Origin: Ostreococcus lucimarinus
Taxonomy: Eukaryota
NCBI GenBank assembly: GCA_000092065.1
Contig: CP000583.1
DNA length: 64,000 bases
Direction: 5' to 3' (one strand)
Both the position numbers and the translations under genes were made by a program. Of this stretch, positions 2,960 through 63,734 are shown piece after piece. The notes below the pieces were generated by a model. That model saw only the letters and a program-made list of their open reading frames with translations. It had not been told where the DNA came from and made no database searches. Every line of letters begins with the position of its first letter. Position 1 is the stretch's first letter.

Positions 2960-3011
2960 TTGTAGGGAGCATAGAATATGTAGGTGCGCTGACTTATGAC
3001 AAACAATAAGC

Positions 3012-3490
3012 TCAAGCACGCGACTTGTACGTGCCGTCTTCCGTGTTCACGATGATGGAGTCGCCGATGTTCACGAAGAGCGGCACGGTCACGACCGCAC
3101 CGGTTTCGATAGTCGCCGGCTTATCGCCACCACTCGCGGTGTTGCCCTTCAATCCCGGATCGGTCTGCACTACCTCGAACGTGTACGGGTTCGGCACCTC
3201 GCAGCCGATGACTTTGCTTTTCCACTGCACGATGCCGCAGTCCATGCCCTCCTTCACAAACTTACTCACCGCTAACGGCGGCACTCGAAGCTCTTCGAAA
3301 GTTTCCATGTTCATGAACATGTAGTCGTCGCCGTCCATGTACGTGTATTGCATAGTATCCTTGGTCACCTCGGCGAGCTCAAACTTTTCGCCAGAGCGAA
3401 ACGTCTTTTCGTTCGTGTTCCCGGTGAGTAAGTTCTTGAGCTTCGTGCGCACGAACGCCGACCCGCGACCGGGCTGTACGTGCATAAATT
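3012..3490 (-). CDS. efp: Elongation factor P (organellar EF-P), exon 3 of 3
   Basis: EFMHVQPGRGSAFVRTKLKNL..KDTMQYTYMDGDDYMFM..; KOW and OB domains of EF-P; exon begins after AG acceptor at ~3491-3492 (phase 1). Confidence 0.85.
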
Positions 3491-3632
3491 CTACTCAAGA
3501 CAATCGACGATCGATTTCCGTCAGTCGTGGCCTCGTCTTCGTGCATTTAAGCGATTTGCGCGAGCAGCCGTCGCTCTCGCGCCTGCGAGTGGATAAAGCG
3601 TACGCGTGCCGTTCGTCATCGCCCGCACGCAC

Positions 3633-3714
3633 CGGTGATTCTCCACGGGTTGGAGTCGATCTCGAGCGAGAGTCCAACCTTGAAATCCGCGGTCGAGCAC
3701 GTCAGCGCGTTCAC
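3633..3714 (-). CDS. efp: EF-P exon 2 (VNALTCSTADFKVGLSLEIDSNPWRIT)
   Basis: Reverse-strand translation gives the canonical EF-P N-terminus ADFKVGLSLEIDSNPWRI; donor GTGCGTGCGG at 3632, upstream in-frame stop forces an acceptor CAG at ~3715. Confidence 0.65.
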
Positions 3715-3828
3715 CTGCGGTCACAACGCGTCGTCAGTCGAGGACTCGTTCGCGGCGAGGCGAGGGCTGCTGTCGTCATCGTCATCCCGTCGAGTCGCGT
3801 CGCGAAGCGTCGTCTCGCGAAGGCGTAC

Positions 3829-3924
3829 CTTGACCGGACCGCGGACACTAGACGCACGCTTAGTGACGGTCGACGTGCGCGTGAATGCGCGGACGCTGGA
3901 GATGGATTGCGACGCGGAAAGCAT
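3829..3924 (-). CDS. efp: EF-P exon 1: 32-aa Ser/Arg/Thr-rich presumed organellar transit peptide (MLSASQSISSVRAFTRTSTVTKRASSVRGPVK)
   Basis: ATG at 3924..3922, phase-0 donor AAG|GTACGC at ~3828, branch ACTGACGACG 15 nt upstream of acceptor CAG; exon lengths 96/82/479 nt total 218 codons in frame. Confidence 0.55.
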
Positions 3925-3973
3925 CGTGTGTGCGTCTTAAAGTGCGGCGTCTGGGCGGGTTGGTTTTCTGTTG

Positions 3974-3978
3974 TTACA
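3974..3978 (-). promoter_or_regulatory. UGUAA-type poly(A) signal downstream of the NTE stop
   Basis: TGTAA on minus strand 18 nt after the stop; TGTAA also found just 3' of VAP (36262-36266, overlapping the stop), beta-amylase (~36387-36391), CCT-alpha (~27120), PDE (~31270) and DUF1295 (~20635). Confidence 0.45.
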
Positions 3979-3995
3979 CTGTCCTCGTGCGGACA

Positions 3996-21750: not shown

Positions 21751-23445
21751 ATGTCGACGGCGACGCCGGCGCGCGCGGTCGCGCGCGCGCCGCCGCGATG
21801 GACCGGTAGGAGCGCGCGCGCGCGCGCGCGGGCGGTGACGCGCGCGGCGGAGGAGGACGACGCGCGAAGCGCGCGAGTGGTGGACTTGTTCGAAGCCGCG
21901 GCGACGCCCATGGGCGCGGCGGCGCGCGCGGAGGCGGCGATGGCGGCGGTGCGAGCGATGACGAGCGTGCGAGAGACGGCGACGTCGAAGACCGAGGCGG
22001 TGACGACGGGAGGAGGGGAAGGGGCGACGAGCGGGAGCGCGAGCGGGAGCGCGCCGAGGTCAACCGGGACGACGACCGGGGCGTCGGGCGCGGCTGACGG
22101 CGCGGTGATGAAGGGAGGGAGGTCCGCGAACGATTCAGGGTTGAAAAACACCGCGAAGAAGGCGTCGAAGCCGAAGGCGGAGACTTTCAACCCCGGGAGC
22201 GACTTTTGGACGTGGACGCCGCCGGAGGCGGCGGGTTCGGATAAAGTCGCCGCCGCCGCGGCGCCAAAGTTGCAGAGACAGACAGAGACTCGCGTGAGCG
22301 CGGCCGTGGCGGTCGCGGAGCGCGCGCCCGAGGCTTCGCTTCAGTTGAAGTTTCAAAGCGACGTCGAGACGCCGAGCGAGTTGAAGCTTGAATTCGAAAG
22401 CGACGTCGTTTTGGCGAAGGAACCGGCGCCGCTGAGCGACACGCCGACGGTGGAGCTAGAGGAAACTGCGACCGCCGTGCGCGAGCTCGGCGCAGATGGG
22501 GAAACCGAAGGTACACTTGAAAATGGTTCGAGGTGGTGGCGCGAGTCAGGCGAAGAGGAACTCGAAGGCGGGAAGCTGTGTCGATGGACGCTCGTCCGAG
22601 GCGCCTCCGCGGACGGTTCCGTCGAGTGGGAAGAAAAATGGTGGGAGACGAGCGATGCTTTCAACTATCGGGAACTCGGGGCGATCAAATCGGGGAGAGA
22701 CGCCAAGGGCAACGTGTGGCAAGAAAGCTGGCGTGAGCAAGTGACTCACGACACCACCACCGGTTTCTCAAACGCCTCGAAGCACATCATGAGAGAGGCG
22801 AACAAGTGGGGTGCGCAAGCCGACGGCGCCGAATGGCACGAAGTGTGGGACGAGAACTACTGGGGCGACGGTCAAGTGAAGCGTACATGTACAAAAAAAG
22901 GTGCGATCGCGAACGGCGCGACTCCAGACGACGGTCACGGTAATCGTTGGACGCACAAGTGGGGCGAGGAGTGGGACGGTCACGGTGGGTGCGTCAAGTG
23001 GACGGATTCCTTCGCCGACCGCGATCAGAGCGAGGACGGTGGAAGCGGACGTGCCTGGGGTGAAAAGTGGGAAGAACGATGGGGGGGATACGCTCACAAC
23101 GGGAGTGCGGGGAATCGCAACGGGAGCACATGGGACGATCGCGACGGGCACAAATTTGAGAAGACGTGGGGCGAGGAGCACTGGCACGACGGTCGCGTCC
23201 ACAAATGGGGCGCCACCACCGATGGTTCCGACGGTTGGGACACCTGGGAAGACAGTGCCGGTTGGTGGGAGCGCGCACCGAGCTTCGGATGGGACGAAGC
23301 CGTCTCGCACTCACCGCAACTCCTCAACGTCCCGCTTCGTCCGCGAGGCACCGGAGTCGAACCCGGAAAGAAAAAGTCCATCGGTCGAGCTCCCGGTCGA
23401 ACGATCAAGCCACCGCCGGGGTCGCGTCTTCACAATCCAGATTAG
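21751..23445 (+). CDS. Trp-rich repeat protein, candidate ESV1/LESV-like starch-granule-associated protein, with Ala/Arg-rich transit peptide
   Basis: C-terminal 250 aa consist of repeated acidic-Trp motifs (EEKWWE, HKWGEEWDG, RAWGEKWEERWGG, KTWGEEHWHDG, HKWGATTDG, DTWEDSAGWWE); N-terminus MSTATPARAVARAPP; ORF-track 5' part (21145-21750) is antisense to the DUF1295 gene. Confidence 0.45.
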   Translation: MSTATPARAVARAPPRWTGRSARARARAVTRAAEEDDARSARVVDLFEAAATPMGAAARAEAAMAAVRAMTSVRETATSKTEAVTTGGGEGATSGSASGSAPRSTGTTTGASGAADGAVMKGGRSANDSGLKNTAKKASKPKAETFNPGSDFWTWTPPEAAGSDKVAAAAAPKLQRQTETRVSAAVAVAERAPEASLQLKFQSDVETPSELKLEFESDVVLAKEPAPLSDTPTVELEETATAVRELGADGETEGTLENGSRWWRESGEEELEGGKLCRWTLVRGASADGSVEWEEKWWETSDAFNYRELGAIKSGRDAKGNVWQESWREQVTHDTTTGFSNASKHIMREANKWGAQADGAEWHEVWDENYWGDGQVKRTCTKKGAIANGATPDDGHGNRWTHKWGEEWDGHGGCVKWTDSFADRDQSEDGGSGRAWGEKWEERWGGYAHNGSAGNRNGSTWDDRDGHKFEKTWGEEHWHDGRVHKWGATTDGSDGWDTWEDSAGWWERAPSFGWDEAVSHSPQLLNVPLRPRGTGVEPGKKKSIGRAPGRTIKPPPGSRLHNPD

Positions 23446-40898: not shown

Positions 40899-43800
40899 TC
40901 ACAGCTTGAGCCTATCGCGAATGAGTTCAGCGATGGAGTCCTCTCCGGGACCGATATCCTTGAAGGCGTCGAGAACTTCAACGATGACGTCTTGGCGGCG
41001 CTTCCACTTCGGGCTTCCCTTGTTCACACCCGTGGTGCTGAAGGTGCGCAAGACATCCACAGCGGCGGATGGCGTGAGCCCAGTCAAGAGAGTCGCGGCG
41101 AGTTTCACATCAGGTTCGGGTTTGTCTTCCGGCTTCTCCACGCCCGGGCGCGCGCCGAACCCGAGGCTCGCACGGCGAACAATGCTCACTTGTTCTTCAA
41201 TCTCCAATCCAGCATAAATAACCTTCGCAGTCTTGACGTTGCGGTTTGCAACGACGCGGAGGATTTCGACCCCGTTGTACACAACGCTTCGCAGGTAGTA
41301 CGGAAGGACGAATTCAGCGACACCAACCATGCGACCGGGCTCGGACATGTTAACCAAACCGATGGCGGCTTCGGCGTCTCCAAGGTTCTCCACCATAATG
41401 TCAATCAACGTCGCAGCACGGGTCAAATCGAGACCCATGAGCGCTTCAGCGCCTCGGGTATCTTTTGCGCGCCACAAAGCAGCTAGGGCTGTCGCCGCAG
41501 CTTCCACGTTGGCTGCTCCTTGAAGGATCAACGTTGCGGCGATCGGATCTTCGTCTTCAGAGAGCTCGAGGACAACCTCTTCGATTTCCTCCTTGGATGC
41601 GCTCTTTTCAAGTCGCTTTTGCAAACGAGATGCACGCTCATCGGTGACTTCGTTGTCCGGCTTTGACGCGGCTTCAGCTTGTTCGGCCGCGCGCTCCGCG
41701 GCGGCTGCAGCGTCCGCCTTTGCCTTTGCCTCAGCGGCTACGGCTTCCGCCTTTGCCTTGGCCTGTGCATCCGCCTTGGTCTTGGCCTGTGCATCCGCCT
41801 TTGCCTTGGCCTCTGCATCCGCCTTTGCCTTGGCCTCTGCATCCGCCTTTGCCTTGGCCTCTGCATCCGCCTTTGCCTTGGCCTCTGCCTCTGCCTTGGC
41901 GTCCGCCTTGGCTTTGGCCTCTGCCTCTGCCTTGGCTTTGGCCTCTGCCTCTGCCTTGGCCTTGGCGTCCGCCTTGGCTTTGGCCTCGGCATCCGCCTTT
42001 GCCTTGGCTTCAGCATCCGCCTTTGCCTTAGCCGCCTTCGCCTCTTCTTCAGCCTTACGCTTCGCTAATTCGGCTTCCTTTCGCTTCGCTTCCTCAGCAG
42101 CCTTCTGAGCTTTCGCAGCCTCCTCCTGCGCCTTGGCTTCCGCCTTGCGACGTTCTTCCGCCTCCTTCTCAGCGCGACGCTTCGCCTCGGCAGCCTCCTT
42201 CTCAGCTTGCTTTCTCTTCTCTTCTTGTTCCTTCTCGAGACGCTTCTTCTCCTCCTCAGCTCGTTTGGCAGCCGCCTTAGCGTCCTCGTCAGCTTTTTTC
42301 TTGGCGCGCGCAGCTTCCTCCTCAGCTTGCTTGGCCTTTGCCGCAGCTTCCTTCTCAGCTTGTTCTTTGGCGCGGCGCTGCTCTTCAGCTTGACGCTTCA
42401 AGTCTTCTGCTTGCTTTTTGGAGTCCTTCTTCGCTGCTTCAGCCGCCTTGCGACGGCTTTCCTCTTCGTCGAGGGCCAATTGCTTGCGTCTTTCCGAAGC
42501 AGCCACGCGCTCGGCCTCCGCCGCTGCAGTTGCAATTCGTAACTCCTCCGCGCGTTCAGCAGCTGCGACGGCTTCAAGACGACGGGATTCTTCGAAGCTG
42601 ATCGTCGAAGATTCTTTGAACAAAACGCCCTCAGTTTCGGTCTGGTTGAAAAATCTACGAGTGTCCTCGTCTTGTCTAGCGGCCCACTCTGAATCTCTCC
42701 TGCTCAAAGTTTCTGCGTTCCATGCAAGACGTCGAGCATCAATTTCAGCGATGATGGCGGCGAGCTCGGCTTCGAGCTGCTTGATACGCATCTCAGCCAC
42801 CTTTCTACGGGCGTCTTCCTCTTCACGTAGAGCTCGCTCGGCACGAACAGCTGCGTCAGCTTCCGCGCAGACAGCAGCGTGACGTCCATCTTCATTGTGA
42901 GTTCTAGTCTGCTCCTCCGTCACGGTGCGTTCAATGGACATCTGGGACTGAGCACGGCGCGCCTTAAACTCTTCGTAGTTGGCCGCTGCAGTCTTTTCGA
43001 GAGCTTGCAATTCGGGAATGAGGATTTGAAGTTGCGACTCCATCTGCGTAATAGTAGCGTTGAGATTCTGCATCATGTTGTCGATAGCAATAGGCGAAGC
43101 AGCGGCAAGTCGCCGCGCATCTTCCTTACGTTGTCTCTCCTCCATCATCTTCCTGAACTCGGCGCGACGAGCTTCCTCGGCGTTGAACAAAGCCTTGATC
43201 TTCGCCGCAAAGTCGTCAATCTCTTTCTGCTTGCGCTCGCACTGCGCGTCAAAATCAGCTCTTCGTTGTTTCTCAGCGGCCTCCTTTTGCGCGATGGCGT
43301 CGGCAGCTTGCTTACGGCGCATCTCCTCTTGAGTCTGTAAGAACTCCTCCTTGGCTTCAAGTTCCGCTCGGAACTTGTCGAGAATGTCCGGCAGTTCATC
43401 ACGGAATCGGTCGCGTCTAGCGTCCTCTTTCGCGATAATATCGTCGTCGATGGCCTTTTGATCGGCAATCTTCTTGTCCATCGCCTTGCGTCGGGCTTCT
43501 TCTTCGGCACGGCGCATGGCTTCGTCGCGCACAAGCTTCTTGAGCTCTTCACGCATTTGCAGCAGCTTGGCGTCTTCTCTCAGGCGCTCGGCCGCATCTT
43601 CCGCGCGAAGACGTTCATCTTCGGCTATAGCTTCTTCACGAGACTTTCTGAACTCCGTGACTCTTTGCGCTTCAGCCTCAAGTGCAGCCTTGGCGGCGGC
43701 ATCAGCTTCGCGTCGACGACGTTCCAAGTCGCGAATGAAATCGTCAATTTCTTGACGCTTTCTGGACACCTCATTCGCATGATCTTCACGTCTGCGTTCT

Positions 43801-46800
43801 TCCTGAGCGCGGAGATCTTCTTCAGCTCTTTGTTTTGCTTGGAGTTCAGCCTTGAAAGCTTCACGACGAGCAAGCTCGGAGGCCCACGCAGCGTCTTCGT
43901 CGGAGCGCATCTTTGTAATGCGTTCTTCCTCGGCGTTGCGACGAGCGTCTTCCTCGGCCATCTTCTTTCTCTCGGCTTCCGCAGCAGCACGAATAACATC
44001 TTCCGCTTCTTTAGCTCTAGCATCTTCTCTGGCGCGACGAGCTTGTTCTTCTGCGTCGCGACGCGCTTGTTCGCGATCCCAATCGGCACGGCGTTGATCT
44101 TCACGAGCTCGAGTGCGTGCCTCGTCTTCTTCGCGACGACGAAGCTCGTCAGCTGCGCGGGCTCGGCGATTCTCCTCCGCAACGATAGCACGCTCGAGCG
44201 CTTCTTTTCGCGTGCGACTCTCGCCTTCTTGCGCGCGACGTTTATTCTCGGCCTCCATACGTAACCGTTGCTCTTGTTGCTCCATGTCCCGCAACTTTTG
44301 CTCTGCGGCGACGCGACGGCGATTTTCAGCTTCCACTCTTTCGGCTTCCTTGCGCACAGCCTCGGCAGCAGCAGCATCGGCTTCACGTCGACGGCGCTCT
44401 TCCTCTTCACGCTTTCTACGCTCTGCTTCAGCAGCAGCCAAAAGGTCTTGCTTGGCTTGTTTACGTCTCGCTTCTTCCGCTTCACGTTGAAGCTGTTCCT
44501 TCGTCTTGAATTCATCCTTGTTGATGATGAAATCGATGCGACGAGAATCTTCAGAAGTGCGTCGCAGACCTTCTTGGGAATTGAAAATCAAATTCGCCTT
44601 GTCTTGTTCTTGCTGACGACGTGTTTCTTCTTCCTTCTTAGCCGCTTCTTCTCGAGCAAGTTCTTCTTCATGACGCTTATTTTCGGCACGACGTTGATCC
44701 TCTTCGGCACGAAGTCGGTTTTCAGCTTCTCGCGCAGCTCGAGCGGCATCGTCGTAAGCACGTCGACGCGCATCTTCGGCTTCTCTTTTGCGGCGTTCAG
44801 CATCCTCAGCGGCCTCAGCTTGCGCCTCGACACGAGCGCGCCGTTGATCTTCATCAGCAATTTTGCGCTTTTCAGCCTCTTCGAGGATCTTGATTTCTTC
44901 AAGTCGAGATTTGTGGTTGGCCTCAGCAGTGGCGATGCGTCGCACCTCTTCAGCGTTGATTCGAGCGATCTCTTGAGCATACTTTTGCCGTCGGTTTTCT
45001 TCCGTATCCTTAAGACGAATACCAAGCTGCTTGAACTCTTCAAGGGCTCGACGCTTAGCGGCGAGATCATCGTCCTCTGCCTTTCGCCGATCGCCTTCTG
45101 CCTTTGCAGCGGCTCGCATCGCAGCTTGCGCGTTCGCGGCGCGAATTTCTTCAGCCTTAAGCGCAGCTTCGATGTCTTGCTTTCTGCGATCAGCGTCATT
45201 TTCGGCAGCGATGCGTCGATCTTTTGTATCGCGTTCGAACTTGACAATCGCTTCCCGGAGAGCGTTGATGGCAGCTTCGGCTTCGCGGCGGCGCTTGTCC
45301 TCGTCGTCGCGACGCTTTGCCTCGTCATCCTCCATTTGTAGAAGCTTACGCGCAGCATCATCACGACGACGTTCCTCCGCAGCTTGACGATCGGCTTCTT
45401 CGCGTTCAAGACGCGCACGTTCATCATCAACTGCGCGTCTGATGTCTTCACGAGCCTGCTCTCGCCGGGTATCCTCCGTTTCCTGGAGACGCCTCTCTTC
45501 TTCAAGCTCACGCGCGTGTTCGTCATCCCACGCTCGTCGTCGAGCTTCTTCAGCGGAACGATCGGCGGCGAGAGCATCTCGCATACGTTGAATTCGAGCC
45601 TCAGCTTCCGCACGACGCCGATTTTCTTCATCTTGCAAACGAGCCTCCTTCTCCAAAAGAGATCGCGTCTCGGTGTCGAATCTTGCTCGAAGATCGGCCT
45701 CGAGTCCCTTCGCCTTCTCAAAGTTATTCTTCGCCAAGTTGATATCTTGTTCACCTTGCGCGCGGCGTAGTTGAATAGAGTTGCGAAGGGCATCGATTTC
45801 CTTTCGGCGGCGTTCGATTTCTTCGCGCAATTTCGCGACTGAAACGGGTGCGCCATCATCGCCACCCATGAGGTCCTCGAGGTCACCCTTTTGTGTCTCA
45901 GTGATGACCTTAGTCGTGATGATCTCTTCCGAGTAAATGGCTTCACATTCGTCGTACAGCCTATCGATCCTCTCCTTCTCGAGTCGACGACGTCTGTTCT
46001 CTTTACGCCGCTCGTTGTTTTCATCCTCGACAGCCTTTCGAAGAGCCTCCTCGGCTTCCTTGCGGCGTCTATCTTCCTCCTTGCGAAGTTTACGCTCGCG
46101 AGCATCGATTTCGTCGTGGTATTCCTCGTCCGGCAATTCTTCACGCCTACGGGCGAGACGCGTGTTCACCTTCTCTCGCGTCGTGATTATCGTCTTCTTC
46201 GTTCGTCCATCAAAGCTGTACGCTACCGATGTTGTGACGGTGCCTGCGGCGTCTCCGATGGATGCCGCGACTTCACCGAGCCTCACCGGCTTCATCTCAA
46301 GCAAGTGAATGAAGAGATAGACGATGAAAGCAATCGCAGCACCGATAATACTTGCGTACTCCATGTTCACTACGTACGTGTAGAACGCGCCAGAACCCGA
46401 GAAGGCACCGGCTTCGATCAAATAGGAAACACCAGAAATGAGTGAAAGCAAGTTGGGCGCCGCCGCGACGGCAATGGCAATCATGGCGCGTGGATTCACG
46501 CCCTTAAAGAACCAATATGGACCCTTAGTATCGCGCGTCTGCATTGCTCGTCGCGATAATTTGCCAGCACGCATAAGCCAGAAGTCACACAAAATCACAC
46601 CGAGCACGGGAGAGACTAACAACGAACCAACGCCAATGATCCACGAGGCAGCGGCGACGACTTGTTGCCACATCAACTGAGCCGGCGCAAAGAGGCCGAC
46701 AGCGCAGGTGATGATGAGCGCTGCTTGCTTGGACGAGATCGTACCACCAAGATAGTTCTTGGTCTTTGCCCACGGAAGCGAGAATTCTTGCATATACTCC

Positions 46801-48035
46801 TGCGGACCAACGACGTTTGCGGCACTGTTCGTCACGAGCGAGGCGATGGCAATGGACGCAAATAAAATCGGCTTCGGCGCTTGCGCCATGGCCGCGGCGA
46901 CGATAGCAAACAAACCGGACAGCAAGGGAAGCCAGAAAAACTGACCAATAGGTGCAGTTCTAGAGCCCTTGATGTGCGCTGTGTAATCTGGATACACGCT
47001 CGCGAGCGTCACCCAAACGCCCACCATAAGCCAAGCGTGCTTCCAGAACTCGTTCGGCAAGGCGCCCGGCATACCCGCGGAAATCAACGAACCGATCGCG
47101 GTCTGAGGAATACCTTGACGCAAAGTCCAAGCGATGAAACCTGCCACGAGCGCTAAGACGGTCTGACCAGACGCGAGAAGTCTCGATGAAGGGACGGTGC
47201 GCAAGGAAATTGCGAGCTGCACCACCCAAAACATCGCGTACGACATCGCTCGCACGACTACATCGCTTTCGATACTCGCGGCGATAAACGTCGTTTTGAA
47301 CAATCCGAACACCGCTTCGCCCCCGACCAAAGTTTGCACGGCGTAGAGCAAGAATCCAAGCGTCGCGCGACAGGCGTCGGTGAACTCCGCCCCCCAAATC
47401 CCGAAACTCGAACGCGCCAGGATCGGCATATTCAGTTCGTACTTCGCCGCGGGGTATCCGATTGCAGAGATAAATGGCATCGCCATCAAAGTACCGAGCG
47501 CTGTCGCCAAACCGAGTTCATACCAGAGCAACGGCGCGAGCGTGTGCAAGTTCCACCGAACGAAACCGTACGGCACCGAATACATCACCGCGCACGTCGC
47601 CAGCGCCGCCCACAGCGAGAGTTCCTTGCCCTTCTCGATCGCATTCTCCTCCGTCGTCGGCGGGATGATCAAATCCTCGTCCCCAGGCGCGACGATGAAC
47701 CCTTCGTCATCCTTATCGTCGTCGCCGGTTTGATCGGCGTACCCCAATCCGACGGCGTTCGCGCGCGTCGACGCCTCCCTCATCCCCACGCCTCGCCTTC
47801 GCGTCCCACCCGCGCACGCGGCCTCCCACGCCAATCCACATCGTTTCTTTCCTCCACCGACCACGCGCGCGACGACCGTCGCGCCCCGCGCGCGCGCCCC
47901 GCCCCCCGCCGTTGCCGCATGCGATTGCCCAACGATTGATTTCGCAAATGTCCCGATCGACCCCGCCCGTCGCCCGCTCTCGCGCGCGCCGCTCCGCCGC
48001 TCCGCCGCCGCGCTCGCGGCGGCGCGCAGCGCCAT
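40899..48035 (-). CDS. Giant (~2,380 aa) protein: N-terminal 12-TM permease domain (NCS1/purine-cytosine-permease-like), ~1,500-aa E/R/K/A-rich charged helical (SAH-like) region, KAKADAEA octapeptide array, ~280-aa C-terminal globular domain
   Basis: Single uninterrupted 7.2-kb ORF with coding-like codon periodicity throughout; TM core from ~LWAALATCAVMYSV to ~IVYLFIHLL; ORF-track start 48101 is GTG, first ATG (MALRAAAS) ~48035. Confidence 0.55.
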   Translation of the reverse strand: MALRAAASAAAERRSGARESGRRAGSIGTFAKSIVGQSHAATAGGGARARGATVVARVVGGGKKRCGLAWEAACAGGTRRRGVGMREASTRANAVGLGYADQTGDDDKDDEGFIVAPGDEDLIIPPTTEENAIEKGKELSLWAALATCAVMYSVPYGFVRWNLHTLAPLLWYELGLATALGTLMAMPFISAIGYPAAKYELNMPILARSSFGIWGAEFTDACRATLGFLLYAVQTLVGGEAVFGLFKTTFIAASIESDVVVRAMSYAMFWVVQLAISLRTVPSSRLLASGQTVLALVAGFIAWTLRQGIPQTAIGSLISAGMPGALPNEFWKHAWLMVGVWVTLASVYPDYTAHIKGSRTAPIGQFFWLPLLSGLFAIVAAAMAQAPKPILFASIAIASLVTNSAANVVGPQEYMQEFSLPWAKTKNYLGGTISSKQAALIITCAVGLFAPAQLMWQQVVAAASWIIGVGSLLVSPVLGVILCDFWLMRAGKLSRRAMQTRDTKGPYWFFKGVNPRAMIAIAVAAAPNLLSLISGVSYLIEAGAFSGSGAFYTYVVNMEYASIIGAAIAFIVYLFIHLLEMKPVRLGEVAASIGDAAGTVTTSVAYSFDGRTKKTIITTREKVNTRLARRREELPDEEYHDEIDARERKLRKEEDRRRKEAEEALRKAVEDENNERRKENRRRRLEKERIDRLYDECEAIYSEEIITTKVITETQKGDLEDLMGGDDGAPVSVAKLREEIERRRKEIDALRNSIQLRRAQGEQDINLAKNNFEKAKGLEADLRARFDTETRSLLEKEARLQDEENRRRAEAEARIQRMRDALAADRSAEEARRRAWDDEHARELEEERRLQETEDTRREQAREDIRRAVDDERARLEREEADRQAAEERRRDDAARKLLQMEDDEAKRRDDEDKRRREAEAAINALREAIVKFERDTKDRRIAAENDADRRKQDIEAALKAEEIRAANAQAAMRAAAKAEGDRRKAEDDDLAAKRRALEEFKQLGIRLKDTEENRRQKYAQEIARINAEEVRRIATAEANHKSRLEEIKILEEAEKRKIADEDQRRARVEAQAEAAEDAERRKREAEDARRRAYDDAARAAREAENRLRAEEDQRRAENKRHEEELAREEAAKKEEETRRQQEQDKANLIFNSQEGLRRTSEDSRRIDFIINKDEFKTKEQLQREAEEARRKQAKQDLLAAAEAERRKREEEERRRREADAAAAEAVRKEAERVEAENRRRVAAEQKLRDMEQQEQRLRMEAENKRRAQEGESRTRKEALERAIVAEENRRARAADELRRREEDEARTRAREDQRRADWDREQARRDAEEQARRAREDARAKEAEDVIRAAAEAERKKMAEEDARRNAEEERITKMRSDEDAAWASELARREAFKAELQAKQRAEEDLRAQEERRREDHANEVSRKRQEIDDFIRDLERRRREADAAAKAALEAEAQRVTEFRKSREEAIAEDERLRAEDAAERLREDAKLLQMREELKKLVRDEAMRRAEEEARRKAMDKKIADQKAIDDDIIAKEDARRDRFRDELPDILDKFRAELEAKEEFLQTQEEMRRKQAADAIAQKEAAEKQRRADFDAQCERKQKEIDDFAAKIKALFNAEEARRAEFRKMMEERQRKEDARRLAAASPIAIDNMMQNLNATITQMESQLQILIPELQALEKTAAANYEEFKARRAQSQMSIERTVTEEQTRTHNEDGRHAAVCAEADAAVRAERALREEEDARRKVAEMRIKQLEAELAAIIAEIDARRLAWNAETLSRRDSEWAARQDEDTRRFFNQTETEGVLFKESSTISFEESRRLEAVAAAERAEELRIATAAAEAERVAASERRKQLALDEEESRRKAAEAAKKDSKKQAEDLKRQAEEQRRAKEQAEKEAAAKAKQAEEEAARAKKKADEDAKAAAKRAEEEKKRLEKEQEEKRKQAEKEAAEAKRRAEKEAEERRKAEAKAQEEAAKAQKAAEEAKRKEAELAKRKAEEEAKAAKAKADAEAKAKADAEAKAKADAKAKAEAEAKAKAEAEAKAKADAKAEAEAKAKADAEAKAKADAEAKAKADAEAKAKADAQAKTKADAQAKAKAEAVAAEAKAKADAAAAAERAAEQAEAASKPDNEVTDERASRLQKRLEKSASKEEIEEVVLELSEDEDPIAATLILQGAANVEAAATALAALWRAKDTRGAEALMGLDLTRAATLIDIMVENLGDAEAAIGLVNMSEPGRMVGVAEFVLPYYLRSVVYNGVEILRVVANRNVKTAKVIYAGLEIEEQVSIVRRASLGFGARPGVEKPEDKPEPDVKLAATLLTGLTPSAAVDVLRTFSTTGVNKGSPKWKRRQDVIVEVLDAFKDIGPGEDSIAELIRDRLKL
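41700..42010 (-). repeat. 24-bp coding tandem repeat array (~12 units) encoding (KAKADAEA)n inside the giant ORF
   Basis: plus-strand gccttggcctctgcatccgcctttgccttg units; minus-strand translation AKAKADAEAKAKADAEAKAKAD... Confidence 0.85.
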
Positions 48036-48309
48036 TCGCGCTCGCGCTCGCGACGACTCGCGCGTCCGCGCCACGCACGTCCGCGCGCGCGGCGTTCTCA
48101 CGCGCGCGAAGAGCGAGCGAATTTAAGGGATCGTCGACGAAGATACGACGTCGCGGCGGTTCGCGCGCGTCCGTCGATCGATCGCGCGCGTCGGTCGATC
48201 GATCGCGCGAGGCTCGCGCGATCGATCGACGTCGCGCGCGCGCGACCGACCGAGGGATCGGCGGTCGGTCGACCGCGCGCGCGCGGCGCGAGAGCGCGGC
48301 GCGCGGGTT

Positions 48310-57591: not shown

Positions 57592-57924
57592 TCAACCGTC
57601 GGCGCCTTCGCTCGCGCATCCGTCCCCCTCCCGCGTCGACGTCGCGTCCCCCTCGCGCGCGCCTCGCTCGTCCGGTTCCCTCGCGCTGTCCTCCGTCGTC
57701 CCCTCCCCCATCGCGCGCCCCTCGCTCCTCGTCGCCGCCGTCCCGCCCGCGTCCCGCCGCCGCGCCTCCTCCGCGCTCTTCCGCATCGCCCAATCCGCGC
57801 TGTCGAAGTGTTTCACGTCCGTCGCGATCAACCGCGGTTTCGGTCGCAGATCGTCGCCGTACTTCGCCCTGAACGCGCGCTCCGCCTCCGTCGCCGCCGT
57901 CGCCGCCGTCGCCTCCCGCGCCAT
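57592..57924 (-). CDS. ENSA: Endosulfine/ARPP-19-like (ENSA family) small phosphoprotein
   Basis: MAREATAATAATEAERAFRAKYGDDLRPKPRLIATDVKHFDSADWAMRKS carries the ENSA-family FDSGDY-type Greatwall-site motif (here FDSADW) with upstream AKY and basic stretch; lies in the 3' part of a long antisense artefact ORF. Confidence 0.5.
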   Translation of the reverse strand: MAREATAATAATEAERAFRAKYGDDLRPKPRLIATDVKHFDSADWAMRKSAEEARRRDAGGTAATRSEGRAMGEGTTEDSAREPDERGAREGDATSTREGDGCASEGADG

Positions 57925-58506
57925 GTCGCGCGTCGCGCGATGCGCGCGATCGCGCGACGCGCGCGCGGCGCCATCCGACGTGGCGGGGCGCGCGCGACGG
58001 ATTCGCGCCGCGCGACTGTTTGCGCATACGACAGAGGGTTCGTCTCGAGTCGCGAACGGTCGACGCACGCGCTCGCGCCGGCGCGCGCGAAACGACGAAT
58101 CGTGACTCGTGACTCGATAAACGACGAATCGTGACTCACGACTCGATGGCCGGCGTCCATACGTACCCCCCGACTCTTGAGTCACGATCGGTCGTTTCAC
58201 AACCCTCGACACGAGGCTCGAATCCGCCGGCGTCGACGTCCGCGCGCGACGCGCGACCGACCGCGCGCGCGACGCGAGATCGCGGCGCGTTCGCGCGACG
58301 AGCGACGCGCTCGAGCGCGTCGACGTCGGCGTCGCGCGCCGAGCGAAAGCGCCGCGCGCGCGCGCGAACGCGGCGACGCGACGGACGCGAATCATCGATC
58401 GCGGGCGTCGATCGCGCGATTCGTCGCGGCGATCGATCGACCGATCGCGGGCGCGGACGCGCGCGAAGACGCGCGGGAGGGCGCACGCGCGGGCGCGGGA
58501 CGCGGG

Positions 58507-60432
58507 ATGCGCGCGGCGGTGACGCGGGCGACGCCGGGGGGGCGCGCGGGCGAGGCGAGCGGGCGGGGGGGAGGGAGGGCGCGCGCGGGGACGCGCGGGA
58601 CGCGGGCGACGCGGGGACGCGCGCGATTCGTGGCGACGCGCACGAGCGGTAGCGTGGGGGACGCGGAAGCGCAGGAGGGAGATGAGCCGGACGTGAACGA
58701 TATGTTCGCGGCGGCGGCGAATGAAATGCAGGCGTCGGAACGATTGGAGCGGGACATTCCGGAGTCGATGACGGTGAGGAAGTCGGCGCCGAGGACGATG
58801 GCGTCGTTCGACGGCGCGGACGAGGATGATGAGGGGAACACTGTGTTGGAAACCGTTCTCGATGTCGCGCGCGATCCGGAGAAGGTCATCAAGGGCGTTG
58901 CCGCGGCGGTGACGTTGGGGACGGCGTACACGGTGGCGAGCGAGCCGGCCTTGGCCGCGGGAGGGGCGGCGGCGGCGCTCCTCGTCATCAAGGTTCTCGA
59001 AGCGTTGGCGAAGGAGGGAGATCAAACTCCGGCTGAATTCCAAGCGTCGCTTAAGAAGGATATCAAACCGTTGATGGAAAAGTTGCCGAAAGATTTCGAC
59101 GCGGAGGCGCTCACGAAGAAGGCGTCGGAGACCGGGGCGAAACTCTTTGAAAGGGCGCAGTCGGTGACTGATTCTTTCGATGAGGTGTTTGGTGGGTTGA
59201 ACTTTGGTGGCGACGCAGACGATGAAGCCGAAGCCGCGGCTTCCAAGTTGCTTGAAATCCGTAGGGCGGACGAGAAGGCTGCGTTGGAAGCGCAAGCCGC
59301 CGAAGACGCCGCGGCGTCGTTCGCCGAAACCGAGGCCAAGGCCAAGGCTGACGCTGCCGCCGCCGCCGCCGCCGCCGCCGCTGAAGCCAAGGCGAAGGCT
59401 GACGCCGAAGCCGCGAAGATTGCCGCCGAAGCCAAGGCGAAGGCTGACGCCGAAGCCAAGGCGAAGGCTGACGCCGAAGCCGCGAAGATTGCCGCCGAAG
59501 CCAAGGCGAAGGCTGATGCCGAAGCCAAGGCGAAGGCTGATGCCGAAGCCAAGGCGAAGGCTGACGCCGAAGCCGCGAAGATTGCCGCCGAAGCCAAGGC
59601 GAAGGCTGACGCCGAAGCCAAGGCGAAGGCTGACGCCGAAGCCAAGGCGAAGGCTGACGCCGAAGCCGCGAAGATTGCCGCCGAAGCCAAGGCGAAGGCT
59701 GATGCCGAAGCCAAGGCGAAGGCTGACGCCGAAGCCAAGGCGAAGGCTGACGCCGAAGCCGCGAAGATTGCCGCCGAAGCCAAGGCGAAGGCTGACGCCG
59801 AAGCCGCGAAGATTGCTGCTGCCAAGGCGAAGGCTGACGCCGAAGCCAAGGCGAAGGCTGATGCCGAAGCTGCGAAGGTTGCCGCTGCCAAGGCAAAGGC
59901 TGATGCCGACGCCGAAGTTAAGGCGAAACGCGCGGCTGAAGCTGAAGCCAAGAAGCGCTCGCAAGAGGAAGCCGAACAGAAGGTTGCGCAACAAGTGATG
60001 GCGGCACAGAAGGTGGCGAAGAAACAAGAAGAGTGGGAGAACTCTTTGCTAAAATTGCAGTACAGCGAGCAGATCATTGAAGATATTCGCGTCGCGGACG
60101 CAAACGCGGTTGAACGCGCGCATGCGCGTCGCCTCGGATTGGATTTCACCCCAGAAGTGGCAAAACAAATGCCAGGAACCGAGTACTCTTGGGGCTCGCA
60201 GACGAACGTCAAACCTGGTGAAGTGATCAGCGCTTTGAACTCCGCCGATGAAGGTTTTGCGTCGTCGAAGAACCGCGCTCGTTCGGCGCTCGGATTGCCG
60301 CAGAAAGACGACCAGCCGGTGGCGGAGAAGCAAGAGCCGTGGTGGGCGACTTTCATAAGAGTTTTCGTGAACATGTTGATCGCTGCCGCCATCGCTGCGT
60401 TCACGTACTTGGTCGTTCGTAGCATGCTGTAA
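58507..60432 (+). CDS. Tail-anchored protein with transit-like N-terminus, helical N-domain, ~190-aa (AEAKAKAD / AEAAKIAA)n array and C-terminal TM helix
   Basis: Non-repetitive N-domain (MFAAAANEMQASERLERD...KLFERAQSVTDSF), 24-bp coding tandem repeats 59340-59900, C-terminus EPWWATFIRVFVNMLIAAAIAAFTYLVVRSML*. Confidence 0.6.
   Translation: MRAAVTRATPGGRAGEASGRGGGRARAGTRGTRATRGRARFVATRTSGSVGDAEAQEGDEPDVNDMFAAAANEMQASERLERDIPESMTVRKSAPRTMASFDGADEDDEGNTVLETVLDVARDPEKVIKGVAAAVTLGTAYTVASEPALAAGGAAAALLVIKVLEALAKEGDQTPAEFQASLKKDIKPLMEKLPKDFDAEALTKKASETGAKLFERAQSVTDSFDEVFGGLNFGGDADDEAEAAASKLLEIRRADEKAALEAQAAEDAAASFAETEAKAKADAAAAAAAAAAEAKAKADAEAAKIAAEAKAKADAEAKAKADAEAAKIAAEAKAKADAEAKAKADAEAKAKADAEAAKIAAEAKAKADAEAKAKADAEAKAKADAEAAKIAAEAKAKADAEAKAKADAEAKAKADAEAAKIAAEAKAKADAEAAKIAAAKAKADAEAKAKADAEAAKVAAAKAKADADAEVKAKRAAEAEAKKRSQEEAEQKVAQQVMAAQKVAKKQEEWENSLLKLQYSEQIIEDIRVADANAVERAHARRLGLDFTPEVAKQMPGTEYSWGSQTNVKPGEVISALNSADEGFASSKNRARSALGLPQKDDQPVAEKQEPWWATFIRVFVNMLIAAAIAAFTYLVVRSML
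59340..59900 (+). repeat. 24-bp coding tandem repeat array (gccgaagccaaggcgaaggctgac; higher-order 72/96-bp units) encoding AEAKAKADAEAKAKADAEAAKIA...
   Basis: Near-perfect DNA repeats visible 59341-59900. Confidence 0.9.
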
Positions 60433-60491
60433 ATTTCGCGCATAAGGACACATTTAATGAGCAAACTTGATCTTATCATTACACTTCTCGT

Positions 60492-63467
60492 TTAGGACGC
60501 TTTCAGTAGAACCTCGAGGATGGAGTCGGGCGCGATTCTTGCCACGTCGTCGTCGTCCGCAATCAAGGTGTCCGGTACCTTGAAAATCTGAAGCACTTGC
60601 ACGGGCTTAACTCTGAATTTGAGCGCAATCTCTTCTCGTAGTTCAAGGTACGTCTGTCGACCGAAAGGAATCTCGCGATAGTAACGCTCATTTGGAACCT
60701 TCACCTTGAGAGACACCGCTTGGTCGATAGGAAGTCCGATGGCTTGCTTGTCGACCTTGGCACGCATTCGGCGCGTATTATCAATGATTGTCGCCGCGTC
60801 TTCTGGCGTTAGCACCGCCGCTTCTTGCAATTCGGTGAAAAATCTAATCTTCAACGTCTCTGGACGAAGCTTTGCCGGTACTGATGCTCGTCTGGTTATC
60901 GTGAGATGCACATCGAGCAGAAATCCATGCTTGACGTCGTACACGAGTTCAATGATGGGGAGGTATCCTTCCCAACGCGTGATATCTTCCTCTTGCCACC
61001 TGACGCGCTGAATTGTGGTATCACCATTCGCGACACCATCTTCGCCAATGATAGCTTTGAACGCCAAATACTCGTCGAGAGCGTCGAGATTCATTGGTTT
61101 GTTCACCTTGATGCGATATGAAATTGCTCCCGCAGACTTGTCATCGATCGCCCTCGTTAAATAATACACGCCAAACGCAACCCCGACCCACGTACACATG
61201 CTAAGAATGAACCAGACCAGTGGTTTGTTCATAAACGGATCAACAATGTACGATCGAGCCCACTCTGTGTGCACGACGCTCCATTCGCCAGTGAGTCTGT
61301 CGAGCAACTCAAACGCAAGCATACCCGCGAAAATGAACTGCATGGTGTATAAGCTTGTCCCTTGTTTGCTGTTCGACTTGATTTGCACCAGCATCTCTCC
61401 ACTACTACCGCGAATGTCTTCGTGCACGCGCAACGCCTGCGACTCGGCTACTGTGTCCACCATGATTCGTAACCCATCGATTTCTTTGCGCGCCGCCTCG
61501 AGGATTTTCCGCATATCCGCCACACGAACCGTGAGATCAGCGAGCATAACTTTCAGGCCAAGGATTTCATAAAGTCTTCTTCCGCTTTCAGTATCTGGAA
61601 TGGTGTGAATACTCTCGTCTTGTTCGATTGATTCCTTCAAGTACACCAGGATTTCCTCGAGCAAAATGATGTCGCGCGAAGTCTCAGCGAGAGTGTGACG
61701 AATATTCGCAACACTGTTCGGATCTTCCTCGTGATTTTTAATCATCTGCCGGACGAGCTTGAGAATGTCATCCGTCATAAATATTCTGTTGAATACGTTG
61801 TGCACGAAGACATCTCTGGACATGATGGACAGGTACATCAACATCACTGGTTCCTGCGCCTTGGCGTTTGGGCCCGTGAGTAAGATGCCGTGAGAACCGG
61901 TGATGACGACATCACGGTCGCTCAAATCGTACGCTTCGTGCGTATCACCTAATACTTGTCTTAACTCGTTTTCGAACGCGTCCTTATCCATGTACATGTC
62001 CGCAGCCTGTTGCGGGGCAATGCGCTCGGCGATGATGATGTTAATTTTGTCTCGTCGTTCGGCGTTACCGAGGAAAACAGTTTGGAGCAAATCACGCTGA
62101 TGATCGCTCAATAGCGAATCTAAAATCGTACTTGAGTCCATATGCACGTCCACGAGTAAGCGCGCCAAGTTATCGAGCGAGATATTGTCCAAAATTCGAT
62201 CCATGACTGATTCAATCATCAAACCGTGCACAATGGTGCCGTCTTTGCGCAAGTGAATGCCAAAGTGCTCGACTTGCACGATACCATCGTCCTCAGGGAA
62301 GTGTACTTGAGCCTCAATGTTGGTGAACGTCGTCATATCATGGTCCAAAATGCTTACATTTGTCAAACCAGCTGGGATCTCACACGTTGCGTTGGTCGAG
62401 TCCGTATCCACCGTGGGGGTGAAGAATCCGCCCTGACATCTGTCGTTTGATCCCAGCTTCATGTTCAACTTGACGATTTGATTCACTCCGAACGGAATCC
62501 ATTCACCAACTAAGATTGTCACGTTGGATACCGTCATGACCTCGTCCAAATCATCGCGAATCGTGCTGTCTTTAGCCGCGCTCTCCGACGCTCGGTGCGA
62601 ATTTGACGACGTCACGGGACCACCTACACGCCGTAAAGCCAACGGAAGATACGGTGATACGACGTACGACACGTCTTCTACATCAGTTATTGTCGATTCG
62701 AACGAAATCGTTTCATTTCTCAAGTAAAAGGTCTCATCTTCCCACACCACTTGCAAAAGTTTCCCGTCGGCGACGCACAGCTCGTCCACCAACTGTCGAT
62801 CCTCTTCGCTCATGCGCTTACTCACGAGCGCCAACCCAGCGGCGGTGATCTGAAACGCCAAAACGCTCTGATGTTCCGCACTGCTCAGCCTCAACCCACG
62901 AATGAGCTCTCCCTCGATCAAATCGTCCAAATCGTCCACCCCCTCCTGCGACACGTTCAAGTACAAGCGCGTATTCTTCACCACCGTCGACTCCGGCGCG
63001 TAATCGTACTCGAACACCTTCTGCACGATCCCCTCATAAATCAACACCAACAGCGGCAACTTCCGCACCCACACCTCCTTCTCGTACGCCGACTGCGCGC
63101 GGTGCGAATACTTCGACACCAAGTACAACAGCTTCAGGTGGCTCACCGTCCAGTAATCGTCGTGAAACTCTCGACGCACTCTCGGCGTCAACCGCGCCGT
63201 CTCCGCCCTCGCGTCGACCAACGGTTTATCCTCGTACCCACTCCCCATCGTTTCCCACCCCCCCCCGCCGCGCCCGTCCTCGCCGTCGTCCTCGCGCGCG
63301 CCCTCGCGCGCGCCGTTCCCCCGCGGCTCGCGTCCCATCGTCGTCGTCGTCGTCCCCCCCCGCGCGTCGTCGCGCGTCCGCTCGCGCCGCACCGCGCCGT
63401 CGCGCACCGCCCGCTGCGCCTCGCGCGCGCCCGCGTCCGCGAGTCGCGCGATCGCGCGCGCGTCCAT
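60492..63467 (-). CDS. Large conserved hypothetical protein (~990 aa) with two C-proximal TM helices in a CorA/MRS2-like topology (no GMN motif) and a ~250-aa tail ending in a ubiquitin-like/PB1-like segment
   Basis: Long non-repetitive ORF; coiled-coil then TM1 SLYTMQFIFAGMLAF and TM2 PLVWFILSMCTWVGVAFGVYYL; C-terminal LKVKVPNERYYREIPFGRQTYLELREEIALKFRV..VLQIFKVPDTLIADDDDV. Confidence 0.5.
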   Translation of the reverse strand: MDARAIARLADAGAREAQRAVRDGAVRRERTRDDARGGTTTTTMGREPRGNGAREGAREDDGEDGRGGGGWETMGSGYEDKPLVDARAETARLTPRVRREFHDDYWTVSHLKLLYLVSKYSHRAQSAYEKEVWVRKLPLLVLIYEGIVQKVFEYDYAPESTVVKNTRLYLNVSQEGVDDLDDLIEGELIRGLRLSSAEHQSVLAFQITAAGLALVSKRMSEEDRQLVDELCVADGKLLQVVWEDETFYLRNETISFESTITDVEDVSYVVSPYLPLALRRVGGPVTSSNSHRASESAAKDSTIRDDLDEVMTVSNVTILVGEWIPFGVNQIVKLNMKLGSNDRCQGGFFTPTVDTDSTNATCEIPAGLTNVSILDHDMTTFTNIEAQVHFPEDDGIVQVEHFGIHLRKDGTIVHGLMIESVMDRILDNISLDNLARLLVDVHMDSSTILDSLLSDHQRDLLQTVFLGNAERRDKINIIIAERIAPQQAADMYMDKDAFENELRQVLGDTHEAYDLSDRDVVITGSHGILLTGPNAKAQEPVMLMYLSIMSRDVFVHNVFNRIFMTDDILKLVRQMIKNHEEDPNSVANIRHTLAETSRDIILLEEILVYLKESIEQDESIHTIPDTESGRRLYEILGLKVMLADLTVRVADMRKILEAARKEIDGLRIMVDTVAESQALRVHEDIRGSSGEMLVQIKSNSKQGTSLYTMQFIFAGMLAFELLDRLTGEWSVVHTEWARSYIVDPFMNKPLVWFILSMCTWVGVAFGVYYLTRAIDDKSAGAISYRIKVNKPMNLDALDEYLAFKAIIGEDGVANGDTTIQRVRWQEEDITRWEGYLPIIELVYDVKHGFLLDVHLTITRRASVPAKLRPETLKIRFFTELQEAAVLTPEDAATIIDNTRRMRAKVDKQAIGLPIDQAVSLKVKVPNERYYREIPFGRQTYLELREEIALKFRVKPVQVLQIFKVPDTLIADDDDVARIAPDSILEVLLKAS

Positions 63468-63734
63468 CGTCGCGCGCGCGTCGCTTAGTGCGACGCGCGC
63501 GCGACGCGAACGGGCGCCGCGGGCGCGCACGGTGCGCGATGCGGGACGGGATTTCGTGACGCGTTTTTACCCCGATCGATCGATCGGACGTTGGACGCGC
63601 ACATAGCACTAACGGCGCGTACACTACGCGCGACGCGAACGAATAGGGGCGCGACGCGGGACGGGATTTTGTGATTTGACGGCGCGGATTCGATTCGATT
63701 CGATTCGACGCGACGGGCGTCGGACGGCGACGCG

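Follow-up and report, generated by a model that had tools for sequence, protein, structure and literature searches.

A presequence, an N-terminal functional domain, a repeat or spacer and a C-terminal transmembrane (TM) helix in an inner organelle membrane follow one another, in that order, in PEND (plastid envelope DNA-binding protein) and in the trypanosome TAC protein p166. In Escherichia coli, the membrane-anchored protein TolA has a domain II that forms a long central alpha-helix, rich in Ala, Lys, Glu and Asp and derived from an intragenic tandem repeat. The copy number of the tolA repeat tract varies between E. coli strains, with phenotypic effects (PMC3477136), and domain II of TolA and TonB switches among clades between helical and Pro-rich forms, the helical form needing more residues for an equal reach (PMC12204202). 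Single alpha-helix (SAH, or ER/K) domains, for example in myosins, drebrin and the KER of CAF-1, lack helix breakers, carry dense opposite charges at i/i+4, and act as semi-rigid spacers or constant-force springs (PMC4183817, PMC5812594). SECE1 and SECE2 are experimental precedents for the combination of a transit peptide with a tail anchor inside chloroplasts: each has an N-terminal transit peptide, a stroma-exposed N-terminal part, one moderately hydrophobic TM helix no more than 30 residues from the C-terminus, and a short tail (PMC6857650). Here we describe a gene of Ostreococcus lucimarinus whose predicted product resembles these systems in part. It lies on the + strand at 58507-60432 of a 64,000-nucleotide (nt) stretch of contig CP000583.1; we call this whole stretch the window. 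The gene is uncharacterised and, as far as sequence searches show, restricted to Ostreococcus-type Mamiellales, which are marine picoalgae.

The gene is a single-exon coding sequence (CDS) of 641 codons plus a stop. Its frame is open from 58177 to 60432, and the first ATG, at 58507, is preceded by 110 open codons. The 641-residue product starts with MRAAVTRATPGG and ends with VVRSML; its predicted N-terminus, MRAAVTRATPGGRAGEASG, is the one quoted in an earlier note on this DNA, and both the list of open reading frames (ORFs) and the translation uphold the placement of the ORF given there. The protein has five parts in order: (i) an N-terminal extension, (ii) a helical N-module, (iii) an array that forms most of a linker, (iv) juxtamembrane motifs, and (v) a C-terminal TM helix followed by four residues. 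The explanation that we tentatively favour, and to which we give slightly less than an even chance, is that the protein is imported into an organelle, is tail-anchored there, and has a length-tolerant linker that holds the N-module off the membrane. The N-terminal extension would direct import and then be cleaved off. The C-terminal helix would anchor the protein and leave its bulk in the organelle interior (stroma or matrix), and the linker would serve as a length-tolerant stalk keeping the conserved N-module away from the membrane. In the window lineage, a very recent in-frame expansion of a 24-nt minisatellite would have made this stalk one unbroken helix of about 280 residues, a semi-rigid rod of the TolA domain II or SAH kind some 40 nm long (with 0.15 nm for each residue, 280 or so helical residues would span about 42 nm).

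We asked how widely the family is distributed. An exhaustive hidden Markov model search with the C-module (the C-terminal 135 aa) against 1.84 billion representatives, clustered at 50% identity, returned seven clusters, and a word-index search with the same 135 residues returned six proteins. Word-index searches with the C- and N-modules and a profile search with the N-module gave no match outside the family, and an exact-sequence look-up of the window protein found no match in the protein collection. Four of the clusters contain complete single ORFs with the same module order: P0010 (448 aa), P0011 (510 aa), P0012/P0024 (484 and 497 aa), and P0014 (451 aa). P0013 (385 aa) has this order too and is cut at its 5' contig end. 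P0014, the one cluster traced to a named genome, is the O. tauri protein CEF97180.1 (XP_003078246.2, A0A090LYU2), encoded on chromosome 3 and annotated only as "unnamed product"; a search of the literature library available to us found no paper citing these accessions, and one on tail-anchored proteins in Ostreococcus found nothing relevant. We consider it a true orthologue, as module order and chromosome 3 synteny are shared with the window gene, but local identity is just 25-32% and its 67-aa linker is Thr/Glu-rich and non-repetitive.

Synteny at the locus holds in all contigs whose length allows a judgement. The gene order is an endosulfine-like gene, the target gene, a convergent gene for a protein of about 1000 aa, and then genes for a cyclophilin, SNAP and a proteasomal AAA ATPase; the target gene stands beside the gene for the 1012-aa protein in six contigs (L001, L002, L005, L007, L009, and L010). 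Local identity of the target protein among relatives is 25-36% whereas the neighbour is 82% identical (window, L001, and O. tauri), which indicates that the target gene evolves unusually fast and that the window stems from a relative of O. tauri at the level of Ostreococcus.

The gene is genuine. The contrary view holds that it is mis-called: the array would either not be coding or be translated from a different frame or strand, and just the C-terminal 190-200 aa or so would make up the real CDS. Metagenome gene callers do list C-terminal fragments of 170-201 aa (P0001-P0006), and long minus-strand ORFs overlap the gene. However, the fragments arise where a scaffold has a gap within the repeat, where a contig stops, or where a long-read contig is frameshifted; at least four lineages have full-length single ORFs, the curated model of O. 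tauri among them; and the N-module is conserved while the array varies in frame. We regard this view as effectively refuted. The earlier note had allowed that the CDS might begin downstream of the array. It does not, because the orthologues, including O. tauri CEF97180.1, carry both modules in one syntenic ORF (P0010, P0011, P0014, P0024, and the 5'-truncated P0013), and the 641-aa CDS is collinear with the four full-length ones. In the C-terminal part, 12 of the 18 substitutions that separate the window from strain L012 are in third codon positions. We note that the minus-strand shadow ORFs over the gene, at 57592-60027 (811 aa) and 59022-60479 (485 aa), are artefacts of GC-rich repeat sequence, and that a metagenome gene caller annotated the wrong strand across the N-module in L005 (496-1548, - strand). 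Such calls help to account for the under-representation of the family in catalogues of proteins.

The best-conserved part of the protein is the C-block, aa 510-641, with 52 invariant columns among five lineage representatives; the earlier note's conserved-looking region of 130 aa is thus conserved in fact. Its consensus reads WxNxLLxLQYSEQIIEDIRVxDANAVExxxARRLGxxFTPxxxxKMPxTEY, followed by a variable Ser/Thr tract, GEVIxALNxxDxGYSSxxNRxRSALG, the TM helix and an Arg. The first motif (aa 510-562, WENSLLKLQYSEQIIEDIRVADANAVERAHARRLGLDFTP...MPGTEYSW, 60034-60192) is the best-conserved block of the family. We ran AlphaFold2 (AF2) on the N- and C-parts separately, with alignments of 6-9 sequences; at this motif the model shows the end of a long helix and then a second helix at aa 518-543. 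The second motif (aa 571-599, GEVISALNSADEGFASSKNRARSALGLPQ, 60217-60303) has G, N, R, and R invariant in 9-10 sequences.

A C-terminal hydrophobic anchor is present in the window protein and in every orthologue. The TM helix spans aa 612-637 (WWATFIRVFVNMLIAAAIAAFTYLVV, 60340-60417), has a Kyte-Doolittle peak of 2.34, and reaches a summed Hessa scale of -0.5 kcal/mol for its best 19-mer; AF2 models the C-terminal segment as helical, with a predicted local distance difference test (pLDDT) score above 90. It is moderately hydrophobic with an embedded Arg and Asn, and is followed by the four-residue tail RSML, with its one basic residue, and the stop codon (60418-60432); R638, directly after the helix, is invariant in alignment A2. 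The single TM helix ending four residues before the stop, as the earlier note described it, therefore agrees with hydropathy, the Hessa scale, AF2, and all orthologues. That note also spoke of a classic tail-anchor topology. The geometry stands, since a single TM helix lies within about 30 residues of the C-terminus in the window protein and all orthologues, but a presequence combined with a tail anchor is not the classic cytosolic, GET-type arrangement. It would belong instead to the less common organelle-internal class, of which SECE1/SECE2 are examples (PMC6857650). The window protein differs from these in having no sequence relationship to them and no SecE signature, in being about 10 times larger, and in its low-complexity stalk.

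The second prominent feature is the array. Tandem Repeats Finder reports a 24-nt unit repeated 21.4 times at 59379-59870 and a 93-nt super-unit repeated 5.0 times with 93% matches (score 751). Tokenising at the protein level gives 14 AEAKAKAD, seven AEAAK[IV]A and two AAKAKAD units with a degenerate end, an in-frame minisatellite of 184 aa (aa 292-475, 59380-59931), so the array of about 190 Ala, Lys, Glu and Asp residues described earlier is confirmed with these limits. Its units are almost identical at synonymous sites, and the expansion is very recent. The array lies within a much longer stretch, aa 236-543 (308 residues, 59212-60135), that contains no Pro or Gly. In AF2 models from which the repeat units between aa 297 and 439 were left out, aa 237-297 (pLDDT 83-97) and 439-515 (pLDDT 58-75) form one continuing helix that runs through WENSLLKLQY. 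Charged i/i+4 pairs in the array are of opposite sign in 62 of 63 cases, with one pair of the same sign, owing to the register of the unit (E2-K6, K4-D8, K6-E2', D8-K4'). We propose a helical stalk because Pro and Gly are missing from aa 236-543, because opposite pairs outnumber like pairs 62:1, and because the AF2 helix enters the array at a pLDDT above 90.

Linkers differ widely between lineages and strains. In four assemblies of the window lineage the distance from SFDEVF to WEN is 843, 954, 792, and 450 nt, that is, 281, 318, 264, and 150 aa, all in frame; the 450-nt value, from an assembly of short reads, may be a collapsed one. The units of strain L012 differ in order and composition, and include AEAAKAA and AEAKAKAE variants. 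The linker is thus 281 aa and A/K/E/D-rich in the window protein, and 150 aa with the same composition in P0011. Outside the window lineage, linkers measure only 67-115 aa: 93 aa, V/E/K/P-rich, in P0010; 115 aa, P/V/K/E-rich, in P0024; 72 aa, mixed (V/E/A/P), in P0013; and 67 aa, T/E/A-rich, in O. tauri. Two of these lineages (P0010 and P0024) have Pro/Glu/Val/Lys-rich linkers, and the AEAKAKAD array is absent from all lineages other than that of the window.

Other minisatellites occur in and near the family. In L005, at about 1500-1900, the linker has a 24-nt minisatellite of its own that encodes EVKPEPV[A/E], and L010 has an independent linker repeat (VEKKEEVVVKPVEEVKPEPVK, 3001-4347); both break short-read scaffolds into runs of N. 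We considered whether the EVKPEPVA repeat might be a frame-shifted or inverted derivative of AEAKAKAD and rejected this, as the best cyclic match is 13 of 24 nt, and 23% of shuffles do as well. At 41746-42033 (- strand), 17 kb from the target gene, there is a second AEAKAKAD array, presumably the neighbouring array of the earlier note. It encodes the same peptide with other synonymous codons (GCA GAG GCC AAG GCA AAG GCG GAT) than the array at 59380-59931, and stands inside a 2400-aa ORF (40899-48101, - strand) composed of an N-terminal multi-pass, transporter-like membrane domain, about 1400 aa of E/R/K/A-rich, SAH-like sequence, the array, and a non-repetitive C-terminal domain.

These observations bear on whether the array does anything at all. 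It may have no function of its own and be the product of neutral or slightly deleterious slippage in a disordered linker, with activity residing in the two conserved modules; this would be compatible with either an organellar or a cytosol-facing topology. The near-identity of units at synonymous sites, hence a very recent expansion, is what such slippage would leave, and so are the variation in unit number and order between close strains and the absence of the array from all other lineages. The second AEAKAKAD array and the unrelated minisatellite of the sister lineage likewise point to a genomic tendency to form repeats. Against this, all observed length variants are in frame, the i/i+4 salt-bridge register is perfect (62:1), and the second array spells the same peptide in different codons, which suggests that selection has acted on the peptide and not on the DNA. 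We consider a functionless array somewhat unlikely. The earlier note saw in the protein a lineage-specific, membrane-tethered spacer. Its restriction to a lineage and its anchoring hold, but the notion of a fixed spacer is weakened by linkers of 67-318 aa and by the extreme youth of the minisatellite.

The part that the stalk would hold off the membrane is the N-module (aa 65-235, 58699-59211), which starts with DMFAAAANEM and has 19 invariant columns in alignment A5. Conserved elements are DMFEAAAKEM, SETVxKK, DPExVxKA, a hydrophobic helix pair, DLKP, and ERAxxVxDSFDEVFxG. The module is acidic and hydrophobic, in contrast to the basic DNA-binding domain of PEND; homology to PEND or to TAC p166 is not expected. 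The earlier note's non-repetitive helical domain of about 180 aa agrees with AF2 in being all-helical, but the model is of low confidence. At the end of the module, before a Gly-rich hinge, stands the motif DSFDEVFGG (aa 222-230, 59170-59196); S, F, D, E, V, F, and G of DSFDEVFxG are invariant in A5, and SFDE, F, and G remain so in A3, which adds the fragment P0015 with Ile for Val. Directly after this motif the AF2 pLDDT falls below 50. The helix pair (aa 127-168, 58885-59010), rich in Ala, Gly, and Val, is marginally hydrophobic, split by SEP, and kept in all orthologues. Its Kyte-Doolittle peaks are 1.33 and 1.91, and its summed Hessa values of +5.4 and +3.7 kcal/mol are positive, so the helices are not predicted to be autonomous TM helices. 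Given this pair, the tail may not be the sole anchor. Neither the helix pair nor the DSFDEVFxG motif figured in the earlier note, nor did the full length of the helix-compatible stretch.

If the helix pair did enter a membrane, the protein could be anchored twice. The pair would then form a hairpin in one membrane and the C-terminal helix would sit in another or in the same one, with the linker bridging or setting the distance, for example between thylakoid and envelope or between inner and outer membranes, as a eukaryotic functional analogue of TolA/TonB. All orthologues have the two conserved hydrophobic helices (16-19 residues), with a Gly/Ala small-residue pattern and a polar turn, and the alternation of helical and Pro-rich linkers among lineages mirrors domain II of TolA/TonB. 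The arithmetic of reach is also similar: 281 helical residues would span about 42 nm, and 93-115 residues of polyproline II (PPII) type about 29-36 nm. However, the summed Hessa scale of +2 to +5 kcal/mol across the pair predicts no TM segment, AF2 shows no confident hairpin, and the linkers of O. tauri and P0013 are just 67-72 aa and not notably Pro-rich. Envelope and thylakoid gaps are far below 30-40 nm, which also counts against such a tether. We consider double anchoring improbable. More speculative still is an analogue of TolA/TonB inside a picoalgal organelle, an idea drawn by analogy that we rate as highly improbable. Here the tail would hold the protein in one membrane, while a hairpin in the N-module, or else a partner that binds DSFDEVF, would attach it to a second structure, which may be another membrane, the nucleoid, or the starch or division apparatus. 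The linker may then have been re-invented repeatedly, as a helical AEAKAKAD rod in the window lineage and as Pro/Glu/Val/Lys rods of PPII type in sister lineages, to tune a reach of tens of nanometres, and repeat-number polymorphism may amount to population-level variation in reach.

The protein begins with an extension that we think likely to be a translated targeting peptide, judging from its sequence features. Residues 1-49 (58507-58653) are R/G/A/T-rich, with 12 Arg and a single acidic residue, and are followed by an acidic patch (aa 50-64, VGDAEAQEGDEPDVN, 58654-58698) at a position where orthologues are acidic too (DGEDGDVSSE, EGGAEEEMTPE). In four lineages the 62-66 residues preceding the DMF motif contain 12-16 Arg/Lys and 10-12 Ser/Thr; the first 50 or so are acid-poor, and nearly all acidic residues lie in the patch beside the mature part. 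Over these lineages the basic, acid-poor extensions (45-66 aa) keep their composition without sequence conservation. In the sister pair L010 and L005 the boundary of conservation is the ATG: DNA upstream of it is unalignable (45% differences and many indels), the extension differs by 15%, and the mature part by 12%. When the window is compared with L012, the extension has longer indels of 9, 45, and 3 nt, all in frame; errors of long-read sequencing best account for its 1-nt indels, since conserved CDS is broken in that contig too and the short-read contig L009 matches the window. Frameshifts in L012 and L002 were considered as a sign of a non-coding extension and rejected, since these contigs also break clearly conserved CDS and L009 agrees with the window. 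Similar R/A/S/T-rich N-extensions are found on a fatty-acid desaturase, a NifS-like aminotransferase, Obg, and a beta-amylase encoded in the window, all of them probably organellar. We favour targeting because of the basic, acid-poor extensions, the ATG boundary in L010/L005, the in-frame indels, and the likeness to these enzymes, and the extension is most likely a cleavable organelle targeting peptide. We note that the DNA encoding it (58446-58645) is a CG-rich tandem repeat with periods of 9-27 nt; this repeat and the in-frame 9-nt and 45-nt indels relative to L012 suggest that the presequence evolves by slippage.

Several findings weigh against the organelle-anchored stalk, and we collect them here. 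The AF2 models have low confidence over the conserved modules (mean pLDDT 60.6 for the all-helical N-part and 63.6 for the C-part) and show no globular fold in either. The array is 53% Ala and about 41% charged, and typical ER/K helices have a higher charged content; in composition it resembles designed Ala-based E/K helices and TolA domain II more closely than it does typical ER/K single alpha-helices. An Ala-based coiled coil or oligomer is a possible alternative to a helix that would stand as a monomer; the 8-residue period would give no heptad seam. Linker length ranges from 67 to 318 aa across lineages and strains, which makes a defined "ruler" length unlikely, and the array could be functionally neutral. 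The gene models published for O. tauri differ in their start (341, 451, and 567 aa). Between the window and L012, the extension shows 17% differences, with no codon-position bias, against 10.6% in upstream non-coding DNA. Finally, a Met lies at or within five residues of the start of the conserved region in all orthologues; in the window protein this is Met66 (ATG at 58702), an alternative start codon at DMFAAAANEM.

The last two of these findings also fit a different topology. Translation may begin at Met66, in which case the "presequence" would be a GC-rich 5' leader and the product a cytosol-facing, tail-anchored protein of the endoplasmic reticulum or an organelle outer membrane. The N-module and DSFDEV(F) would then be cytosolic, and the protein could be a receptor or tether. 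The neutral-like rate of the extension and the ever-present Met would follow from this, and open frames arise by chance in such GC-rich DNA, as the 110 codons upstream of the ATG and the 811-aa opposite-strand shadow ORF illustrate. The moderately hydrophobic TM helix with Arg and Asn and the short tail with one basic residue are like those of organelle outer-membrane tail anchors. The DSFDEVF motif is also invariant; DSFDEV(F) is a form of what we take to be the ATG8-interacting [W/F/Y]xx[L/I/V] core in an acidic context (the xLIR pattern), and resembles DSYEVL of FUNDC1. On the other side, conservation between L010 and L005 starts at the upstream ATG and not at the Met of DMF (45% differences upstream, 15% in the extension), and the patch that precedes DMF keeps its acidic character. 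O. tauri has DVF in place of DMF, so an equivalent of Met66 is not universal. The longer of the extension's indels have lengths divisible by three, and the extension resembles the other presumptive targeting peptides of the window. We consider the cytosol-facing form unlikely. Thus the earlier note's transit-peptide-like N-terminus holds as a matter of composition, while a start at the conserved Met, without a presequence, retains that lesser probability.

Comparison with known families returned no relative. Pfam gave no significant match for the window protein or any of the 10 aligned members. In the PDB, phmmer found low-complexity matches only (eL29, Mediator, and similar), and profiles built on the C- and N-module alignments produced no significant match. 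Foldseek against the PDB reached at best E=0.85 and E=2.6; the models are of low confidence, so this fold-level negative is weak. The earlier note's statement that no family can be assigned agrees with all of these searches, and its idea of a lineage-specific protein agrees with the seven clusters among 1.84 billion representatives. A remote relationship to a known family is possible, given the poor models and the fast evolution. One candidate paralogue within the window, the + strand ORF at 21751-23445, was rejected: it shares "DLFEAA", but the remainder is an unrelated Trp-rich repeat protein. The N-terminus of this 564-aa ORF is presequence-like, Trp-rich repeats (WGEKWEERW, WGEEW, and WxExW) fill its C-terminal half, and it matches no Pfam family.

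The long helical or Pro-rich central domain that characterises TolA and TonB is present in the window family, with TolA domain II as the counterpart of the window linker and TonB domain II as that of the orthologues with Pro-rich linkers. The resemblance is mechanistic only. There is no detectable homology, the window gene is a eukaryotic nuclear gene whose product is not known to have a motor partner, and its anchor is C-terminal rather than N-terminal. The SHLS motor-binding motif of TolA/TonB is not in the window protein, whose only strong TM helix is the C-terminal one, and the globular C-terminal domain of TolA/TonB was not found with Pfam (all members), PDB profiles, or AF2. Membership is excluded because the anchor is at the wrong end and both SHLS and this domain are missing. 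Compared with SAH domains, the window array shares the absence of helix breakers and the dense opposite i/i+4 charges, but it arises from a very young minisatellite rather than a conserved domain. We conclude that this is a familiar architecture varied, and not a new kind of system.

The two neighbours of the gene deserve a brief description. Downstream and convergent, at 60492-63530 (- strand), lies the gene for the 1012-aa protein that is 82% identical to its O. tauri and L001 orthologues. A Pfam scan of this protein gave no match, and precomputed Pfam annotation of its orthologues lists PF27231 (MJ1567), PF27230 (MJ1566_N), and, weakly, PF27687 (ANKRD40_UBL); the first two are archaeal-named domains in a picoalgal protein. 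Upstream and divergent, at 57.6-57.9 kb (- strand), lies the endosulfine-like gene (AKYGDDLRPKPRLIATDVKHFDSADWAM). About 600 nt separate it from the target gene and presumably hold both promoters.

What the finding means depends on the array. If the array is neutral, the gene is merely an orphan encoding a hypothetical protein with a low-complexity expansion, which is common in GC-rich Mamiellales genomes. Either way, the orthologous genes provide a clear example of minisatellites that arose independently in one linker. Should the stalk reading hold, the protein would be a naturally length-polymorphic molecular spacer in the smallest known free-living eukaryote, an organism whose whole cells can be imaged by cryo-electron tomography; O. 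tauri is genetically tractable. It would then allow a direct test of how the length and chemistry of a linker, alpha-helical or Pro-rich, set distances at organelle membranes.

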